From IMG/VR virus record IMGVR_UViG_2778261500_000001: DNA of 23,709 bases; one strand, written 5' to 3'. Under the pieces are notes generated by a model. It searched no databases. It was given only the letters and a program-made list of their open reading frames with translations, and was not told the origin of the DNA. Both the position numbers and the translations under genes were made by a program. Shown piece after piece: positions 12,344-22,226 of the stretch. This stretch comes from a virus. Its lineage: Duplodnaviria; Heunggongvirae; Uroviricota; Caudoviricetes. Every line of letters starts with the position of its first letter. Position 1 is the stretch's first letter.

Positions 12344-13084
12344 TTACTCAATAGGTTCAAACTCATCCTGAGGAATCAGCGTCGATTGACAGGCTTGGCT
12401 TAGTACTCCTGATAATTTACATAATAACCGATAGTTATGAGGAGCATCATCGCTAATCTTTTCGACCGTTAAAGTGATTGATTTTGGATCATCCAATAAC
12501 ATCTTCTTGATATCATTACTTAAATACCTAGGGCAGTAACCAACGATTTCAGCTGGTTTATCTGCACGAACGACAACAGCATCCCCATCGTATTCATTTT
12601 GAAGATCCAAGCAAAGACGCAAAATTTGCCCCGGTTTCAATTCAGATACACGAGCATTAGCTAAGCTATTTAAGTAACCAAGTCCATGTAAGAAGAAAAA
12701 ATGCTCAAAGTTACCATCAGAATCAACATCAATTTTTTTGAAAATCTGCAGCTGATCAGTGCTTCGTAAGCCTCCCGAGCGAGCAAGAATATCGATAGGA
12801 TTTACCTTATCTTCTTCAAATCCAAGCCATTTAATGAAACTCGGATACTCTGGACGTCTCGGTGATAAAAGGCGATTTTTAAAAAGAGGAAACAATTCTT
12901 CCGAAACATAAGTTTCACGAACATCACTCATGCCGCTAAACTTTGTAAATTTAGTAGATTTAAGAGCACCTTTGGTATACCTGAAAACATACCCCGATTT
13001 GCGCTCTTGCAAGTTACCAACAACATGCCAGTCTCTGGTATCTGGTGCCTGCCATGCGACGTAAACGGAGTTTGTATTAGTCAT
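12344..13084 (-). CDS. Partner protein with HipA-N-terminal-like domain fused to a HIRAN-like domain
   Basis: 246 aa. N-terminal part (VYVAWQ...VVGNL...YVFRY; LFPLFKNRLLSPRRPE; IDILARSGGLRS) resembles the HipA N-terminal subdomain as I recall it. C-terminal part (LKPGQILRLCLDLQNEYDGDAVVVRADKPAEIVGYCPRYLSNDI) fits the HIRAN pattern. Start overlaps the stop of the upstream kinase gene. AT-rich. Confidence 0.6.
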   Translation of the reverse strand: MTNTNSVYVAWQAPDTRDWHVVGNLQERKSGYVFRYTKGALKSTKFTKFSGMSDVRETYVSEELFPLFKNRLLSPRRPEYPSFIKWLGFEEDKVNPIDILARSGGLRSTDQLQIFKKIDVDSDGNFEHFFFLHGLGYLNSLANARVSELKPGQILRLCLDLQNEYDGDAVVVRADKPAEIVGYCPRYLSNDIKKMLLDDPKSITLTVEKISDDAPHNYRLLCKLSGVLSQACQSTLIPQDEFEPIE

Positions 13085-13995
13085 TCTAGTAACCTTCTGC
13101 GATTTTCCATTACCATTAACGTTGCAAATCTACGTGCACTGTCGGATATACACGATGAAGGCACTTGGTTAAACACATCTGTAATGGAATCTTCTGTTAA
13201 AACGCTCAACTTACCTAACCAATGGTCGCGAGCGGCAACTCTCCCTTCAACTGCATGTTGAAATGCTTCAACGGTCAGCAAGGGCTTTTTATCAGTTTTT
13301 GCTTTGAATAGCTCAGAGCGAGCTTTTCTTACAAAACATGGGATTTGTCGATTTTTATCTTTAGTATTAAGCCGTTCGTTACGCTCATCATCTAACATCT
13401 CCCTTCCTAAACTAGCGGCATGATCGTATGTTGGACACAAAAACTGCTCACCAGTTTCATTGTTAAGCATGATCGCCCAATTTTCATGATGGCGATCTTG
13501 ATTACTCACAAGTGCATCGAGCATCAAAAATCCACAAAATACATCTGCTGCATTTAGCCCGGTTAGATCATATACACTCGGAGGAGGCTTGATAGATTCC
13601 CTATCTAAACAACCCAATACCCTTGTGACAGTGTGTTCTCTGACCCTTACCGGCTTTTCCCCGGCTTGTAAAGGCCCTGGATAATCGAATGTCGAACTGT
13701 GAAGCACTTCATTTCCCATTACCATCCGGAAACCAGATGGAATGATATTCTGAGTCACCACACCGAATCGACCATTGTATCGCGCCAAATCATAGCTAGC
13801 ATGTGGAATGTTAAGCAAATGACATAACTCAGCAGCACACTTTTCAGACCAATGCTCGCCAGTACCTGGCCTAGAGTACTTAAACAACTGCAAATTTACA
13901 GTGTCATCGGAGAAATAGAACCAAAACTTCTCTTTGGTTCCTAACTGTTCAAGATCGTTAGCTACGGGGCTAAGCTCTACCAATTGGTATGGCAT
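13081..13995 (-). CDS. HipA-like Ser/Thr protein kinase, core kinase domain only
   Basis: 304 aa. Motifs seen: FLMLDALVSNQDRHHENWAIM (compare HipA catalytic loop with Asp) and LCPTYDHAASLG (compare HipA PAYD Mg-binding Asp), plus a glycine-lysine motif LGTKEKF near the N-terminus. Putative catalytic Asp167 and Asp191 by my count. No HipA N-terminal domain in this ORF. Confidence 0.75.
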   Translation of the reverse strand: MPYQLVELSPVANDLEQLGTKEKFWFYFSDDTVNLQLFKYSRPGTGEHWSEKCAAELCHLLNIPHASYDLARYNGRFGVVTQNIIPSGFRMVMGNEVLHSSTFDYPGPLQAGEKPVRVREHTVTRVLGCLDRESIKPPPSVYDLTGLNAADVFCGFLMLDALVSNQDRHHENWAIMLNNETGEQFLCPTYDHAASLGREMLDDERNERLNTKDKNRQIPCFVRKARSELFKAKTDKKPLLTVEAFQHAVEGRVAARDHWLGKLSVLTEDSITDVFNQVPSSCISDSARRFATLMVMENRRRLLE

Positions 13996-14147
13996 CTGAC
14001 ATCCCTGTTTAGCGGATTATGAATAAGTTAGGTTCCATTTTATCCAAACATTGTCAAATACTCTAAGATTTATTAGATGATAGAGCGATACTGTATGCAT
14101 GTCCAGCAATCAAATCAATATATAACTCTTATATGACTTAGCGCGCG

Positions 14148-14508: not shown

Positions 14509-14934
14509 ATGAAAAGCTTTTACGTATTAATTTTAATTCTGGTTGCAAGCTTTGTTAGCGTCCCAGTTCAGGCGGTAACAGCTAAAAACTATGAGAAAGG
14601 AACTAAAGCTCAACAGAAATCAATATCTTACCTTTCATGTGCATTCTATGGCAGTAGCACACAATTAGATCCTAGCTACACGGAGCAAGTACCTACAGCC
14701 GATATCAAGATATTACAGAAAGCAGCTTACCACGCTTACAACGATGCGCTCTCATACTTTGGCTATGAGGAACCAGATCACGAACAACGCATAATTGATT
14801 ATGCTGAATTTGTGGCGTCGCAAGAAGCTGTGTTATGGGATAAGCCGGGAATGAATGGAAAGCAGGTAACACTAATTGCTCGTTCTCTCTACAATGAGAG
14901 TAACTGTAACTTGTTACTGGACTCAATTAAGTAG
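14509..14934 (+). CDS. Small secreted protein of unknown function (accessory/moron gene)
   Basis: 141 aa with a classic Sec signal peptide (MKSFYVLILILVASFVSVPVQA, AxA-type cleavage site); GAGG Shine-Dalgarno 8 nt upstream; AT-rich; only plus-strand gene in this island. Confidence 0.5.
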   Translation: MKSFYVLILILVASFVSVPVQAVTAKNYEKGTKAQQKSISYLSCAFYGSSTQLDPSYTEQVPTADIKILQKAAYHAYNDALSYFGYEEPDHEQRIIDYAEFVASQEAVLWDKPGMNGKQVTLIARSLYNESNCNLLLDSIK

Positions 14935-15093
14935 GAAAAAGATGGTATTTTGCCCGTAGTTTCAACCTTAATCTCCGAACCTGTCGCAGAACGGGCGTTC
15001 ACTCATCAAATAAACGCCACACCTAACGCCTCACTGTACTCGTTGTTCAACCTTGCTGACGCCAGAACCAAGTTCAGACGCCAGCAACTTTTC

Positions 15094-15327
15094 TTAATGC
15101 AGCCAGCTGTCGTCTTCCCACACCTTCTGCATAATCTTCATCACTTGTTTTCTTTCTTCGTCCAGTTGCAGTCCGGTCAGTTCCACACCGTTAGAGCTAC
15201 CTTTGCGGATGCGAATTACCATTTTGGGATACAGGGGGCGCAGATTGCGGTAAAGCTCGGATTCAAGGGCGTCCAGGGTAGACTGGCTAATCTTCTGCTC
15301 TTTATCGATCATTATTTCAATGCGCAT
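15094..15327 (-). CDS. DinI-family protein (SOS-associated, Tum/DinI-like)
   Basis: ORF 15094..15399; from internal start MRIEIMIDKEQ... the product is about 78 aa and resembles E. coli DinI end-to-end as recalled, including the C-terminal acidic W motif (WEDDSW). Confidence 0.7.
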   Translation of the reverse strand: MRIEIMIDKEQKISQSTLDALESELYRNLRPLYPKMVIRIRKGSSNGVELTGLQLDEERKQVMKIMQKVWEDDSWLH

Positions 15328-15337
15328 AAAGGTCACC

Positions 15338-15526
15338 TCAGCTGATGACATCCATTGAGCGGTTGTATTCGTGGGTTCTGATTTTTGCCATGAGTTCATC
15401 AGTCAATTCAGAAACCCACTGCAGAGCCAGCCCCTTCTCTTCATCACTACACTCACTAGCCGCTACAAGCTTAAGAAAAAAATCAATGCGCTGGAGCTTC
15501 AAAGACTCCAAAAAATAGTCCTGCAT
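15338..15526 (-). CDS. Small hypothetical protein immediately downstream of a LexA box (possible Tum-like antirepressor component)
   Basis: 62 aa ORF with strong SD (GGAGG) and a LexA box about 45 bp upstream; functional call is positional only. Confidence 0.35.
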   Translation of the reverse strand: MQDYFLESLKLQRIDFFLKLVAASECSDEEKGLALQWVSELTDELMAKIRTHEYNRSMDVIS

Positions 15527-15568
15527 CTTTCCTCCTATGACACCAAAGCAATACTGTATATATAACCA

Positions 15569-15584
15569 CTGTTTATATTTACAG
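15569..15584 (-). promoter_or_regulatory. LexA box (CTGT-N8-ACAG) overlapping an AT-rich promoter region
   Basis: cACTGTTTATATTTACAGta seen directly; perfect CTGT/ACAG half-sites with an AT-rich 8-bp spacer; TATA-rich -10-like sequences adjacent; upstream of the 62-aa/DinI-like genes. Confidence 0.7.
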
Positions 15585-15678
15585 TATATAATAATCTTAC
15601 TGATGTAAAACGTTTTTTTACGTTCATCAGCCTGAAATGCCTGGTATTATTAAGAGCACGAATTGTTAACCCGCGTAA

Positions 15679-18051
15679 TTAATACAGGTTCCGCCACTTA
15701 TCATCTTCCTGCAAACGCTGGTTCCGATAGAAGATACGCAGGCCTGCTCCTGACGGAATACTGCCGCCGCGAAGGAGTAAATCGACCTCTTTCTCGCTGC
15801 CATCAAATCCTCTGGACTTCAGTTCATAGACGAGCTGCTGTCGCTGATGGTCTGTAATTCGCTGTTTGTAGTCTTTACGCCGTTTCGGTTTCACCAGGCG
15901 TAACCTTGCAGCCAGTTCCCGGCGCTCTTTTTTGCTCATACTGTGCAGGTATTCGTGCAACTCCTTGTCATCCATGCGGGTAATGTCCGTTCTGGTATCC
16001 CCATCAGCTGATTTGTCTTTCCCTTGTTGGTTCAAATTTTCAGCAAGGGGACAGTTATTGCCACGAGTCCAAGGGGCGCAAGCGCCCTGGTCGGCTGCCG
16101 CCTCCTGAACATCAACGGCCTTACGAACCATTTTCCACTTCACGGCATGAGTGCAGATCTTGCCCTCTGCAATAGGTGACCAGATGCCATAAATACGAAT
16201 GCCGTGATCGCCATAGGCGGTCGGCTCTTCGTTGATTTCATAAGCGGTTCTGATGAGGTGATATTTGCGGGGAACCAGTACGCCGCCCTGCTTCATGATG
16301 TAGGTGGCAAAACAACCAGCATCAGCAGCAGCCAGGATGGCATCAAGGCGCGGGTTATCCAGTACCGGCGCACCTGCTTTTTTGTCCCCCTGTTGCCTTG
16401 CCGCCTGACCAGCCAGCAATCGCAGTTCACGGTAAGCCTGACGCCCCGGAATGCCAAAGAAGCGGAATTGCTGAACACGATGCAGAGACGCCCAGGCATT
16501 AACGTATTCAGCATTATCACGCAGGGATTTCCCCGTTTCCTTGCTGATCTCGCCAGCCAGACCACGCCCGTCAATGTTCTTACTGATGTATTTCGCGATG
16601 TAGCTTGTTGGCGTACCTTTGCGCGGGTTAATCAACTCAGACTTAAAGCGCGGCCCAGTGTTATTGCCCAGTTCCTCGCGGTCTTCACGGATGGCAAACT
16701 TACGCAGTAATGCAGTGATGGCGCGGCGGTCTTTTTTGCGCATAAAACACAACAGGTGCCAGTGAACTGTACCGTCATGATGCGGCTCAGCCACCCGCAC
16801 GCCATACCACCGCAATCCGGCTTTGTGCATCGCCTTACGAAATGCAGCAAACATGCCGACCAGATAATCACTGCTTTGTCTTACCGTCGCATTTGTCCAA
16901 GTTGGGTTGGGCCTGCCATTATTTAGCGTGGAATGGAAACGTGACGGACAGGTGATGGTGTAGAAAACGGCGCAGTCACCGCGCATTTCCGCGATAAGCT
17001 CCAGGCCTTTAACACAGGCCATCATCTCATTGCGGCGATGCGCAGGGTTGCTGCTGCTGGCGTTTACCACATCCTCCATGTCCAGCGTGTCGCCGTCTTC
17101 GTTCACCAGTTCATGAGAACGAAAAAACTCCAGCGACTTACGGCGCTGCTCACGTTTATGCATCACGGCTTCATAGCTGACATAGGGAGATGCTTTTTTG
17201 CTGACCAGGCAGACAGCACGCAACTGCTCTTCCCGCCATTCGCAACGCATCTTCCATAATTTCCGGTACCACCAGTCAGCGCACAACATACGCGCCAGCG
17301 AACCCGGAATGAGTTCATAGGGCACGGGTTTACGGCGGTTTCTTTTCCGGCGGAGTTGCTCAAACGCAGGCGGGATGACATCCAGACGCAGGGTTTCCGC
17401 TGCCACCTTTTCCCATGTCTTGCGGATTTCTTCTGGCTTAACGTCATCGGTGACATACAAATCGCCACAAGCTGCATCAAGGCACATGCTCATATGCGCA
17501 GCTACCAGGGTGGACAGGCGTTTCACCTGATCCTGACTCATTTCAGGCAGGATCAGCAGGCCGTCCAGCCCTTCATGGCTTGCCATAAAGCGAAAAGAAG
17601 TGGATAGCTGACAGTCGCGTACATGCTCCAGCCGTTCCAGACATGGCTTAATCGTCTCACGCAAATAGCGGGAATAAGCCTTTGGCCTGCCCAGGCTGCT
17701 GAAGTATTCAATACGTTGCATCAGTGGCTTGCTGATATGGGAAGGCTGGGCATTAACGTCCGCCAGAATGACCATATCTGGATTAAAACGCTGCTGCTCA
17801 TGCGCCAGCTTTGCCCGACTAATGAGCTTATCCTGCTCCATTTCGCGCTGGACAGGATCACGGGATTCATTAAAGAAATAACGCTCCCAGACCTGATCAC
17901 TCAGTGCCTCGCGGCGCAGCTGTTCCTGCTCGTTATCGGCAGCGTACAGAGCGATCAGGTTTGAAAGCGCAGAAACTGAAGATTGCTCTTCCGTCTCTAC
18001 GTAAGGATTGATTGCTTTTTTCTCAGCATTCCAGGAATAGCTGTAGTTCAT
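15679..18051 (-). CDS. A: Replication initiation protein A (rolling-circle endonuclease)
   Basis: ORF 15679..18102 (807 aa); probable start at MNYSYSW (18051), overlapping the upstream stop as TAATG. Contains a two-tyrosine motif [12 protein letters not shown] consistent with P2 gpA active-site tyrosines. Confidence 0.85.
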
Positions 18052-18881
18052 TACGCAATCTCCAGTTCGAGCTGTGAAGGCTGCAAACCATTCGACAGCC
18101 AATCAGAAACTGAAGGTGGGCGAACAGCTTCAATTGCACCTTTTAAAATTGCGCAACGGTTTTTCAGAATGACAGCTTTCAGCTCCTTTTCCGTCAGATT
18201 GCGCGAATACTCAGCCTCCTGAATAGCCCGCGTCAGCTCAGGATATTTGCTATTAAATTTGGGGACATTGCAGGCAAGATTTGTACTGTCGGCAGTCGCC
18301 AGTGGGTAATTTCCCAACACACGACCGTCAAGCATGCGCAAACCATGAACAGCTGTTTTGAAATTGTGTCGGCAATAAATTGCTTCAAAAGCGTCCTGCA
18401 TACGACGATGCCAGTGCGCAGTTCTGATAGCCGCATATTCACCAGACGATCCAAAGCAGACACGAGGCCATTCACGACATAGCTCGATAAGCCGATCGAT
18501 TGACTCGTGCAGATGCCAGACGGGAGTTGCCTTCCCGTAGAACATTTTCGGAACTTCGTTTATCAGGGCATCATTGTCACGTTCACCTCCGTCCACAACA
18601 TCAGGAATGACAAAAAAAGCGACCTTAGGATGGTGGTAATAGTTCAGGAGCCATTTATAAAAATCACTCCAGTTAATTTTTAGCCCACGCACCCATGCAG
18701 AAAATGCGCCGTTATCAATGCCGACGACCTGAGCGTGCTGAATGGACGCCGCAATCTGATCTGGTCGTACATAGGAGACGAAAGCGCCAGCTCCGCTCAC
18801 CGCAATACGATGAACGTCGCCAGCACTTCCCCAGACAGGCGTCCCATGGAAATGATGAATTCCGTGGTGCATTTCTTTCAC
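18051..18881 (-). CDS. Hypothetical protein, possibly TGT/DpdA-like TIM-barrel (uncertain)
   Basis: 276 aa; GTG start overlaps the Dam stop (GTGA), stop overlaps the A start. Motifs [32 protein letters not shown] are weakly reminiscent of tRNA-guanine transglycosylase-like enzymes; unverified. Confidence 0.45.
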
Positions 18882-19732
18882 ACTTGCACCCCGAAAATAA
18901 CAGTAGAGTCACGTCCCCTACTAAAATCGGCACTAAACCAATTAGCAGATTTAGTGGCAATCATCTCTGTTGCAAATTTTCCCTCCCCCGCTGCAACGCC
19001 GATGCTGCGTTTCGCCCTGATGTAGTGGTGAGTGAAATTACGATAAAGGGACCGGGTCAAAGACGTGTTACTGTTAGAAACAATGACCGGATGTCCTTCT
19101 GATGACCGATGTTCAAGAATGGATGCCAGGTGATACTGATCATCTTCAGTGAAACCATCAGTGTGATAGCCGGAAAACGTACCGTCATAAGGCGGATCGC
19201 AATACACCACATCCCCCACCTTCAACATCGCCAGCGTTTCATCAAAGCTGGCGCAGATAAACGTTGCCCGCTGGGCTTTCTCTGCAAATGCGCGAATTTC
19301 TTTTTCAGGGAAATACGGATTTTTATAATTACCGTAGGGAATGTTGAAATGCCCGCTCTTGTTATAGCGACATAAACCACGGTAACCGTGACGATTGAGA
19401 TACAGGAAATATACCGCTTTCATGAAATCAGTAATTTCAGTGGAGTAATTAAACTCCTGCCTTATGTTGTAATAAGCCACCTCCCTGTTTGCTTCCTCAA
19501 ATAAAGCTCTGGCACGAGATATAAACGCCTCACAATCAGCAGCAACCTTTTTATAGAGGTTGATTAAATCAGGATTAATATCCGCAACAAGATAGCTGGG
19601 GTAATCCGTCTCCATCATCACTGCACAGGAACCCGCGAAAGGTTCAACCAGTCGCGGGCCAGCAGGAAGATGCTTTTTCAGTTCGGACATTATGGCGGTT
19701 TTATTTCCTGCCCATTTCAGGATGGTGCTCAT
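18878..19732 (-). CDS. dam: DNA adenine methyltransferase (Dam family)
   Basis: ORF 18878..19792; likely start [11 protein letters not shown] (ATG at 19732, ATGA overlap with the upstream gene). Motifs KWAGNK, EPFAGS and DPPY are the Dam/D12-class N6-adenine MTase signatures. Confidence 0.85.
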
Positions 19733-19956
19733 ACAGCACCTCCGTTGTAATGTTTGCCTTTCAGCTCTGCGATTTCCTGACAGGTAATGCAAAGCTGCAC
19801 ACCCGGAATGGCACGGCGGCGTGCTGGCGGAATTGGCGCTTCACACTCAACGCAAAGCACGCGGGACACGCCCGGCGTTTTGGCACGGGCAGCACGGATA
19901 TGGCGTTGGCGTTCTTCTTCAACGCGCTGCTGTACGAGATCCATTGCATCAGCCAT
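19729..19956 (-). CDS. TraR/DksA-family C4 zinc-finger protein
   Basis: 75 aa with CVEC-X17-CITC spacing typical of TraR/DksA-type zinc fingers, not the Ogr/B late activator pattern. Confidence 0.7.
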   Translation of the reverse strand: MADAMDLVQQRVEEERQRHIRAARAKTPGVSRVLCVECEAPIPPARRRAIPGVQLCITCQEIAELKGKHYNGGAV

Positions 19957-20769: not shown

Positions 20770-21279
20770 TCACAGCAAACCGAATGAAGCACCGAGGCCA
20801 GTCACGGTATCAACTGCACTCGCCATCGCAGGATTAGCCTGTAAACGGGCCTGCAATGAAACAGCGGCCAGCGCCATCAGTCGTGTTACAGAGTTAATGC
20901 TGCTGATAGCATCACGACGACCTGCACTGGTTTTTACATCGCCAGATACCGCACCTGCAGCAACACGCCCGATCTCTGCGGTTGCACTCATGACATAATG
21001 CGGCAGTTTCTCTTTTGCCACCTCATTAATCGGTACACATGGCAGGCAGTGAATCTGTGCCAGAAAGCCATCTACCAGCGTTGAATCTTCAGTCAGATCG
21101 GTAAGCAACCAGATTTCTGGTGCGGTTAATAAATGAGGTTGAGCTGGGTTCAGCTTGTTCCGCAGAATCTGTACATTCATGCCTGCACGTTCTGCCAGTC
21201 GCACCAGGTTGTGGCGCAGTGCGAATGCACGACAGGCTTCGTCAAAATGTGGATGTTTGGAAACTTGATAATCAAACAT
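20770..21279 (-). CDS. cII: CII-like transcriptional activator (186 CII family)
   Basis: 169 aa; sequence closely resembles phage 186 CII as I remember it ([11 protein letters not shown]...[17 protein letters not shown]...GASFGLL); second gene of the lytic operon. Confidence 0.75.
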
Positions 21280-21311: not shown

Positions 21312-21533
21312 TCAATTGATTACGACATTGGAATCGGCAAGCGCATCCACTGTCATGGCTGCAATGTTGATCATTACCTTTTCACGTTTTTTATCCTTGC
21401 GAAGACGATGCCGCTTAAGGCGTCCATCTGCGAGCATACTGTTGATAGTGTCTACAGATAACCCTGTGAGTTCACTGTACTTTTCAACCGAAATGGATGG
21501 GACAGCTAATGTGATTGAAATGTGCTGAGTCAT
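21312..21533 (-). CDS. apl: Apl/Cox-like excisionase and switch regulator
   Basis: 73 aa with HTH-like segment KYSELTGLSVDTINSMLADGRL; first gene transcribed from the candidate lytic promoter, divergent from cI. Confidence 0.55.
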   Translation of the reverse strand: MTQHISITLAVPSISVEKYSELTGLSVDTINSMLADGRLKRHRLRKDKKREKVMINIAAMTVDALADSNVVIN

Positions 21534-21584
21534 AAGGCAACATCTCCTGTTTAAGTGTGTTTAACATTGACGAGTAGTTGTAAG

Positions 21585-21658
21585 TCACATTTTGAAATCA
21601 ATGCGACTATAAGATCACAAATTGAAATCGTCAACCATAAAGTTCACAAGGTGAAATC
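21585..21658. repeat. Three 15-bp direct repeats TCACA-N3-TGAAATC at about 30-bp spacing (putative operators)
   Basis: tcacattttgaaatc (21585-21599), tcacaaattgaaatc (21615-21629), tcacaaggtgaaatc (21644-21658), seen directly in the apl/cI intergenic region, overlapping the candidate pR. Confidence 0.55.
21606..21634 (-). promoter_or_regulatory. Candidate lytic promoter pR (sigma70-type) directed towards apl
   Basis: Minus strand reads TTGACG - 17 nt - TATAGT (-35 at 21629-21634, -10 at 21606-21611); apl start lies about 65 bp downstream. Confidence 0.6.
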
Positions 21659-21659
21659 G

Positions 21660-22226
21660 ATGGATTTTAGTCAAGGTGGAAAGAAAGCTATCGAAAGGAT
21701 GGTTGAAGCCTATGGGTTCACTACAAGACAGGCGTTATGTGAACAACTAGGCATATCAAAAAGCAGTCTTGCTACACGCTACATGAGAGATTCATTCCCT
21801 TCTGATTGGGTTATTCAGTGCGCGCTCGAAACAGGAGTAAACATAAAGTGGCTGGTAACAGGCTTACCTCCTAAACATGAATATTTAACGTCTGACATCA
21901 TCAATATTCAAAAAATAAAATTGATTGATGGAGTGCTATTGGATGCAGGAACACTAATGTTTGACAAAGTGTTCATTCCTGATGGTTTATCATCACCATC
22001 TGTGATATCAAACGGGAATAACTCTTATTTTATTGAGAGGGATTTCACAGATGTAGTTGATGGTGATTGGTTAATCTCCATTGATGGAAAGCATTCTATA
22101 AAACAAGTTATTAGAATTCCTGATAATAAAGTTAAGATTAACTATGGGAATATCATTGTTGATATGAACATTAATGACCTTGTATTCATCGGCAAAGTTA
22201 TAGCAGAATTCAAGATAAGAGGCTAA
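21660..22226 (+). CDS. cI: CI-like immunity repressor (186 CI family)
   Basis: ORF 21555..22226 begins with GTG inside the intergenic region; likely true start is ATG at 21660 (MDFSQGG...), preceded by AGGTGA. N-terminal region AYGF...QLGISKSSLATRYMRDSFPSDWVIQCALETGVNIKWLVTG resembles the 186 CI HTH domain as recalled. Confidence 0.75.
   Translation: MDFSQGGKKAIERMVEAYGFTTRQALCEQLGISKSSLATRYMRDSFPSDWVIQCALETGVNIKWLVTGLPPKHEYLTSDIINIQKIKLIDGVLLDAGTLMFDKVFIPDGLSSPSVISNGNNSYFIERDFTDVVDGDWLISIDGKHSIKQVIRIPDNKVKINYGNIIVDMNINDLVFIGKVIAEFKIRG

Follow-up and report, generated by a model that had tools for sequence, protein, structure and literature searches.

Positions 15094 to 15600 of the DNA analysed here, a stretch of 23,709 nucleotides that we call the window, very probably hold the SOS operon tumA-tumB of a Fels-2/186-like (Peduoviridae) prophage, with a promoter repressed by LexA. 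On the - strand, replication gene A is followed by an intergenic region of 152 nt, tumA, a spacer of 10 nt and tumB, and the two small genes together represent the two halves of the 186 protein Tum, in order. The anatomy of this module, its homologies, the purifying selection acting on tumA and tumB and the conserved operator are what the sequence gives. The features that characterize the Tum operons of 186, PSP3 and Fels-2 at the sequence level are all found: the position after gene A, a LexA box on the promoter, a homologue of the N-terminal half of Tum, a DinI part, and a non-cleavable CI of the 186 type. A sequence-only reading made beforehand had seen in this region a counterpart of 186 tum beside gene A, and this placement agrees with the GenBank record of 186, in which gene A is followed directly by p95, the LexA site and tum. 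Its analogy with tum also holds, the 62-aa ORF answering to the N-terminal half of Tum, the DinI-family ORF to the C-terminal half, and the immunity region being of the 186 type. The coordinates of all features are collected in Table 1; the true start of gene A is probably a little downstream of TTG 18102.

Table 1. Features of the tumA-tumB operon, its control region and the related genes of the window.
Feature	Coordinates	Strand	Basis or remark
cI, 186-type immunity repressor, presumed target of TumA	21660..22226	+	Pfam domains; open from GTG 21555, likely start ATG 21660
Apl/Cox-like gene	21312..21533		divergent from cI
CII, CP76 family	20770..21279		
Replication gene A	15679..18102	-	ORF list; relatives annotate "replication endonuclease" or "gpA" here
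Imperfect hairpin	15631..15599	-	RNAfold, about -12 kcal/mol; between gene A and the promoter, 3' arm holds the -35
Putative -35 TTTACA	15609..15604	-	read from sequence; p95-like layout
Alternative -10 TATACT	15588..15583	-	
Putative -10 TACTGT	15586..15581	-	first half-site of the distal LexA box; by analogy with the annotated -10 of 186 p95
Distal LexA (SOS) box TACTGTAAATATAAACAGTG	15586..15567	-	unique consensus match, top rough-matrix score, kept in relatives
Proximal LexA box CAGTGGTTATATATACAGTA	15571..15552	-	shares 5 bp with the distal box; colicin-type alignment
tumA Shine-Dalgarno AGGAGG	15536..15531	-	
tumA, predicted antirepressor of 186-type CI	15338..15526	-	62 aa; phrog_698, family HMM, Fels-2 match
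tumB Shine-Dalgarno GAGGTG	15339..15334	-	6 nt upstream of ATG 15327
tumB, DinI family	15094..15327	-	77 aa from ATG 15327
GC-rich hairpin without U tract	15053..15087	-	RNAfold; just past the tumB stop, opposite the convergent 141-aa gene
141-aa secreted-looking protein, convergent	14509..14934		phrog_7437

We consider the operator first. When the 23.7-kb window is searched with the 20-mer consensus TACTGTATATATATACAGTA, allowing up to three mismatches, a single match is obtained, at 15567..15586, and this site is also the only one in the window with the pattern CTGT-N8-ACAG. As the sole consensus match, read on the - strand, it confirms the LexA box that had been proposed from the letters of the DNA. 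The same consensus search finds no match in any of 100 dinucleotide-preserving shuffles, and the possibility of a chance AT-rich palindrome was rejected. The box itself is retained, but the number of boxes has to be raised from the one originally claimed to two: the operator sequence on the coding strand, TACTGTAAATATAAACAGTGGTTATATATACAGTA (15552..15586), consists of two 20-bp boxes with 5 bp in common. The distal and proximal boxes are the two top LexA-like sites of the window when ranked with a rough matrix, and sites of equal quality appear in none of 60 shuffles. This matrix was built from E. coli sites and is off the published HI values (5.5 against 4.31 for recA, 3.1 against 7.48 for the distal box of cea); it served for the ranking of sites and the shuffle control, not for HI values. 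The overlapping pair is present also in Fels-2, SopEphi and the Yersinia phage MLG42, and a single LexA box is present in 186, PSP3 and ESSI2_ev015.

The arrangement of the two boxes has a counterpart on plasmids. A blastn comparison of the 81-nt promoter region with plasmids matches 987 records, and among the matches listed most are small mobilizable plasmids with 85-88% identity over about 42 nt, a length that is exactly the double box. In the three plasmid records inspected, about 40 nt separate the match from the gene for colicin E1 (cea), pesticin (pst) or cloacin, which is downstream of it. Alignment with the operators of these three genes leaves the core of the boxes nearly invariant, and the proximal box is one base apart from the proximal box of cea. 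Like them, the operator here has two 20-bp boxes at an offset of 15 bp, with an overlap of a few bases and a degenerate left half-site in the second box, and on these grounds we class it, by its sequence, as a colicin-type double SOS box. Colicin operators take two LexA dimers, and their tight repression has been credited to this double binding (PMC2994835). The likeness does not extend to the gene controlled, which is a predicted prophage antirepressor here and a bacteriocin there, or to the promoter, because the upstream sequence of the aligned colicin promoters is different and only here does the distal box coincide with the -10.

How does the operator sit on the promoter? The distal box opens with TACTGT, 17 nt 3' of TTTACA, and either TTTACA or TTCACA is found 17-18 nt before TACTGT in Fels-2, SopEphi, MLG42, ev015 and 186. 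In the GenBank record of 186, the mapped promoter p95 has the -35 TTCACA, a spacer of 18 nt and the -10 TACTGT, and the LexA site begins at that TACTGT. The promoter of the module is assigned by analogy with this annotated p95. A generic sigma-70 promoter scan calls none on the - strand in the region; a promoter of this kind is missed by a simple scan because the -10 TACTGT is weak. Since the architecture is of the p95 type, occlusion of the promoter is the natural reading of how LexA would repress it. That box and promoter overlap had been seen correctly beforehand, but the end then given to the module, 15600, is slightly short, as the likely -35 lies just beyond it. The hairpin at 15599..15631, whose sequence is kept in Fels-2, may serve as a stop for read-through from gene A; terminator-like palindromes are known ahead of the LexA boxes in Gifsy prophages (PMC3121763).

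The first gene behind this promoter is the 62-aa ORF of the sequence-only reading, which stands as described, with a Shine-Dalgarno sequence of its own. Its product, TumA, is an acidic protein (pI 4.6) that is 98.4% identical to STM2728 of Fels-2, where the gene that comes next is of the DinI family and is described as similar to PSP3 TumB. The relation of TumA to 186 Tum is brought out by profiles. TumA matches phrog_698 (E 3.6e-38) and also phrog_8554 and phrog_1993, and the first 70 residues of 186 Tum match phrog_1993 (1.5e-23), phrog_8554 (3.4e-12) and phrog_698 (5.9e-6) in the same profile columns as TumA. Positions 5-47 of an HMM of the TumA family (63 members) align to Tum residues 5-48 with 17.6 bits (E 1e-7 for one comparison). 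A pairwise BLASTP of the 62-aa ORF against 186 Tum gives no alignment, but the profiles agree, so that the homology of TumA to the N-terminal half of 186 Tum appears remote yet consistent. The alignment with 186 tum that had been suggested as a check succeeds for the DinI ORF, TumB being 40% identical to Tum residues 71-145, and for the 62-aa ORF it fails pairwise and succeeds with profiles. Pfam contains no match to TumA, a PDB sequence search with it returns nothing, and PADLOC gives no match for either TumA or TumB. AlphaFold2 models TumA as a two-helix hairpin (helices 2-23 and 28-61, mean pLDDT 91.6). For the upstream half, an antirepressor role is on record solely as a personal communication about PSP3, cited in PMC3121763. 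In the phage and E. coli records examined, the 62-aa protein is labelled hypothetical or, wrongly, "levan regulatory protein"; it can now be named TumA, the predicted antirepressor half of Tum.

For the second gene, the family had been recognized correctly. TumB matches Pfam DinI (PF06183) with 81.5 bits (E 5.4e-23, cut-off 24.2) over profile positions 1-63 of 63. The start, however, has to be moved. In the mechanical ORF list, the DinI frame runs for 101 aa from ATG 15399; the true start is most likely ATG 15327, which gives 77 aa, because MRIEI then meets residue 1 of E. coli DinI and GAGGTG stands 6 nt upstream. TumB can be aligned over its whole length with E. coli DinI (PDB 1GHH; residues 1-77, E 4.3e-6), and its first residues also line up with the GTG-initiated, 76-aa truncated Tum of 186. 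The C-terminal motif WEDDSW is common to the alignments with Tum and with DinI. As a DinI homologue, TumB would most likely act on RecA filaments.

The presumed target of TumA lies in the immunity region, which by its gene content is a 186-type switch of CI, Apl and CII. CI has the Pfam domains Phage_CI_repr (E 1.3e-28) and Phage_CI_C (E 2.4e-26) and no Pfam match to Peptidase_S24. Without an autocleavage domain such a repressor cannot answer RecA directly, and an antirepressor is therefore to be expected. This is how 186 is induced, via Tum from the LexA-regulated p95 (PMC7708051), with Tum sequestering CI reversibly (PMC7708051, PMC3121763).

From 186, PSP3 and Fels-2 we carry over that LexA binds, that the operon is SOS-inducible, that TumA acts as antirepressor and what TumB does, and with these we infer the following course of events. 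In the undamaged cell, LexA dimers would occupy the two overlapping SOS boxes, over the -10 and the transcription start region, and keep the promoter shut. DNA damage would activate RecA, LexA would cleave itself, and tumA-tumB would be transcribed. TumA would then bind the 186-type CI and keep it off its operators, which would free the lytic promoter from repression and induce the prophage. TumB, translated separately, would most likely set the strength or the duration of the SOS signal by modulating RecA filaments. Such a scheme would explain how the prophage senses DNA damage although its repressor cannot self-cleave.

The pairing of TumA with CI deserves closer attention. TumA is 98-100% identical in Fels-2, KP12, 4LV2017, Kp4846-2, Cartapus and ST15-OXA48phi14.1, and the CIs of these phages with near-identical TumA are 32-43% identical to the CI of the window and 34-62% to each other. 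Since the CI here and the one of Fels-2 have only 33% identity, recognition of the former by the TumA allele of the window is not guaranteed. The identity is unevenly distributed along the protein: in the phages sharing TumA, the N-terminal DNA-binding domain of CI is 63-73% identical to that of the window and the remainder 26-30%, and for 186 CI the corresponding values are 44% and 23%. HTH domains are usually the best-conserved part in any case. The pattern fits recognition of the CI N-terminal domain by TumA and fits mosaic recombination equally, so we take it as a lead and not as a result. That the Fels-2-type TumA is a broad-specificity antirepressor across E. coli, Klebsiella and Salmonella prophages is a tentative suggestion from these comparisons, and rather doubtful. 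If TumA does target the N-terminal domain, one SOS-induced prophage could induce heteroimmune prophages of the 186 family in trans, and the colicin-type double LexA operator would then give the shared trigger an unusually high damage threshold.

The same comparisons bear on the alternative that the operon is SOS-regulated as described but TumA is not the antirepressor of the local CI, having some other target or acting only on heterologous prophages, with the module mainly tuning the SOS response of the host by way of its DinI homologue. The occurrence of an identical or near-identical TumA beside such different CIs may indeed mean that there is no local matching. A 186-type CI without an autocleavage domain, however, needs some inducer; tumA is under strong purifying selection and stands at the tum position in all relatives; and the N-terminal domain of CI, far better conserved than the remainder, offers a possible common target. 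ESSI2_ev015, moreover, has a tumA homologue at the tum position and no DinI gene annotated beside it, which suggests that the essential part is TumA. We consider a non-cognate TumA unlikely and retain its assignment as the predicted antirepressor of the local CI.

The next question is whether the separation of tumA from tumB is real. The sequence-only reading had left a real split, a frameshift and a distinct arrangement open, and the answer is a real and conserved split of the tumA/tumB type of PSP3, found also in Fels-2. The split is a stable, functional arrangement, of which 186 is the fused variant, because both cistrons have a Shine-Dalgarno sequence and an ATG of their own, dN/dS is low, and the frame offset varies. 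Against Fels-2, dN/dS is 0.057 for tumA and 0.049 for tumB; against SopEphi and MLG42 it is 0.07-0.08 (dS 0.8-1.1), so that tumA comes to 0.06-0.07 and tumB to 0.05-0.08. In the window and in Fels-2, the spacer is 10 nt and tumB lies in the +1 frame relative to tumA. Elsewhere the spacer and offset are 11 nt and 2 (SopEphi), 12 nt and 0 (MLG42), or 3 nt and 0 (PSP3), and in two E. coli prophages of about 97% identity to the window the spacer is longer by a single T, which changes the offset to 2. The occurrence of all three frame offsets (0, 1 and 2) in relatives speaks against recoding into a conserved fusion and against a recent frameshift alike. The best 120 database relatives of TumA are all short stand-alone proteins without a DinI domain, and in 186 an internal start additionally gives the DinI part by itself.

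Programmed recoding, either a +1 frameshift or read-through of the stop codon, would give a Tum-like fusion besides the separate proteins. The open tumB frame reaches 65 nt into the end of tumA, with the A5 run GCAAAAATC within the overlap, and tumA and tumB of MLG42 and PSP3 share one frame, with one stop codon and a short spacer between them. Against this, the offset is not kept even between the window and the two prophages that are 97% identical to it, no known +1 shift site is found at the stop codon (AGC TGA G), and the length of the spacer ranges from 3 to 12 nt. As the frame relationship is not conserved, we reject the programmed frameshift fusion; the idea that the two ORFs might be joined by a +1 or -1 shift, raised beforehand, has to be given up, and recoding in general is very unlikely. 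The least credible reading is that a fused tum of the 186 type was recently split by a frameshift or nonsense mutation and is now a decaying pseudogene: it would suit the fact that the two homologous parts form a single 146-aa protein in 186 and the +1 frame of tumB in the window, but is contradicted by the intact ORFs of the split in Fels-2, SopEphi, MLG42, PSP3 and over 1000 E. coli genomes, by the purifying selection that both halves show at dS values reaching about 1, by the start signals of tumB with its ATG at DinI residue 1, and by the stand-alone relatives of TumA.

The stable split of tumA and tumB is already known: it is annotated in PSP3, present in Fels-2, and described for both phages by Lemire et al. 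2011 (PMC3121763). The closest of the known systems can be compared in turn. The Fels-2 genes STM2728 and STM2726.1 follow gpA; TumB is one residue apart in addition to the near-identity of TumA given above, the 10-nt spacer, the frame offset and the 152-nt intergenic region are all equal, and the double LexA operator is one base apart. Unlike the window, where a HipA-like/HIRAN pair comes after the convergent 141-aa gene, Fels-2 has a 243-aa gene after its DinI gene, and its CI is the divergent one already noted. PSP3 likewise has two separate genes after gene A and a LexA box over TACTGT, and its record describes tumA as "similar to 5' end 186 tum; UV induction of prophage" and tumB as "similar to dinI and 3' end of 186 tum". 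PSP3 TumB differs from TumB here at 18 of 77 residues. PSP3 departs from the window in having a TumA of the 186 sequence type, a weak match to the TumA family here (E 0.002, single comparison), a single LexA box, and genes in frame with only TAG and 3 nt between them.

With 186 the module shares the position after gene A, the LexA box on the -10 TACTGT and a CI target of the 186 type, whereas 186 Tum is a fused 146-aa protein accompanied by in-frame truncated products from internal starts, and 186 has a single LexA box and orf97 downstream. A more distant likeness is found in the dinI-gfoA/gftA operons of Gifsy-1/2/3, in which a LexA box is preceded by a terminator-like palindrome and a DinI homologue is co-transcribed with a small antirepressor of a non-cleavable repressor (PMC3121763). 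The LexA box, the upstream palindrome and the DinI homologue beside a small predicted antirepressor recur here; the Gifsy phages, however, are lambdoid and their gene order is reversed, with dinI first.

The module is widespread in E. coli. Its 507 nt are found in 1125 of the 5426 complete E. coli genomes, about a fifth, once with 100% identity (strain RM10466), and the window, E. coli-like in its sequence, shows 99.1% identity to E. coli LR-71-1 across 3.7 kb. The mechanism of 186 Tum has been textbook knowledge since the 1990s. With the mechanism so established for 186 and the split documented for PSP3 and Fels-2, the value of the present assignment lies in correct annotation and not in discovery. 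Two leads may be of use, the double colicin-type operator and the recurrence of a single TumA allele beside CIs of many types, and both bear on prophage cross-induction.

Downstream of tumB, the GC-rich hairpin at 15053..15087 may form the 3' boundary of the operon, which is uncertain, as a terminator scan gives no canonical intrinsic terminator in the region. Both 186 orf97 and its Fels-2 counterpart are absent downstream of tumB, and a search against Rfam gives no RNA family anywhere in the window. Beyond the convergent 141-aa gene, a HipA_C-like/HIRAN gene pair on the - strand matches PADLOC PDC-M03 A/B (E 1.4e-121 and 3.4e-93), and by these matches the pair is a candidate defence system. 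A tblastn search of phages with the HipA-like protein returns four Vibrio elements only, which are few for gauging the conservation of the site described next in distant relatives. A third LexA-like box, TACTGTATGCATGTCCAGCA, lies at 14089..14108, about 95 nt upstream of the HipA_C-like/HIRAN pair, and it accompanies this pair in three E. coli prophages with differing neighbouring cargo.

Besides the tum operator, which controls the tumA-tumB operon, the window has a single site of box quality when scanned with a rough LexA matrix, the third LexA-like box listed below, and the same matrix gave 0 such sites in 60 shuffles of the sequence. About 95 nt separate the box from the ATG (13995, minus strand) of the HipA-like gene downstream of it, whose product is encoded together with a HIRAN-domain protein by two genes with overlapping stop and start codons. 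It is kept in three E. coli prophages in which the adjacent cargo differs, and in one of these it carries one substitution, towards the consensus. Judged from the sequence, this LexA-like box may place the HipA-like/HIRAN pair, a candidate defence system, under SOS regulation.

The pair itself matches the two components of the PADLOC candidate defence system PDC-M03 with E-values of 1.4e-121 (A) and 3.4e-93 (B). With the tum operon on one side and the portal gene on the other, it occupies a variable slot that in phage 186 holds orf97, and its only relatives in the phage collection are found in four Vibrio elements. A swap site separates tumB from the HipA-like gene, with different contents in the window and in two E. 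coli prophages.

Features of the variable slots, the gene A upstream region and the compared CI frame
Feature	Location	Strand	Remarks
HipA_C-like (304 aa) and HIRAN-domain (246 aa) protein genes	12344..13995	-	PADLOC PDC-M03 A/B
LexA-like box, third in window	14089..14108		TACTGTATGCATGTCCAGCA; CTG-N10-CAG
141-aa protein gene	14509..14934	+	phrog_7437; signal-peptide-like N-terminus; tumB/HipA-like slot
176-aa hypothetical protein	L019 2454..2984		E. coli CFSAN061772, same slot; differs from the 141-aa protein
Restriction endonuclease and ASCH-domain gene	L020 2559..4214		E. coli MB06022, same slot
276-aa protein gene	18051..18881	-	phrog_887 'queuine tRNA-ribosyltransferase', E 2.4e-96
D12-class Dam-like methyltransferase gene	18878..19792	-	Pfam E 2.4e-76
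4LV2017 CI reading frame	KY271398 2903..3844		280 aa; Klebsiella phage (L014)

Two further genes, for the 276-aa protein and the Dam-like methyltransferase, sit upstream of the replication gene A. A Pfam search with the 276-aa protein returned no match. In LR-71-1, the closest E. coli prophage examined, the methylase immediately precedes gene A, and the interval between them has no annotated transglycosylase-like gene. The 276-aa gene could be a DNA-modification cargo gene of the DpdA-like kind.

Many phages of the collection share an identical TumA, the predicted antirepressor, with the window despite a divergent immunity repressor CI, and the best identity to the window's CI (21555..22226) in that collection is at most about 50%. 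Compared with the CI-region stretches of related phages (L012-L018), it is mainly the N-terminal HTH domain that is conserved. In the 4LV2017 frame, taken to the first ATG inside the fetched stretch while the annotated CDS extends farther upstream, this domain occurs twice in tandem, followed by the C-terminal domain; either the DNA-binding domain may have been duplicated, or the repeat may be a quirk of annotation or assembly.

Some Klebsiella phage and UniRef entries label homologues of TumA 'levan regulatory domain protein' or 'Levan regulatory protein', and other records label them 'hypothetical protein'. The name with 'levan' is probably an annotation error that has been copied from record to record.
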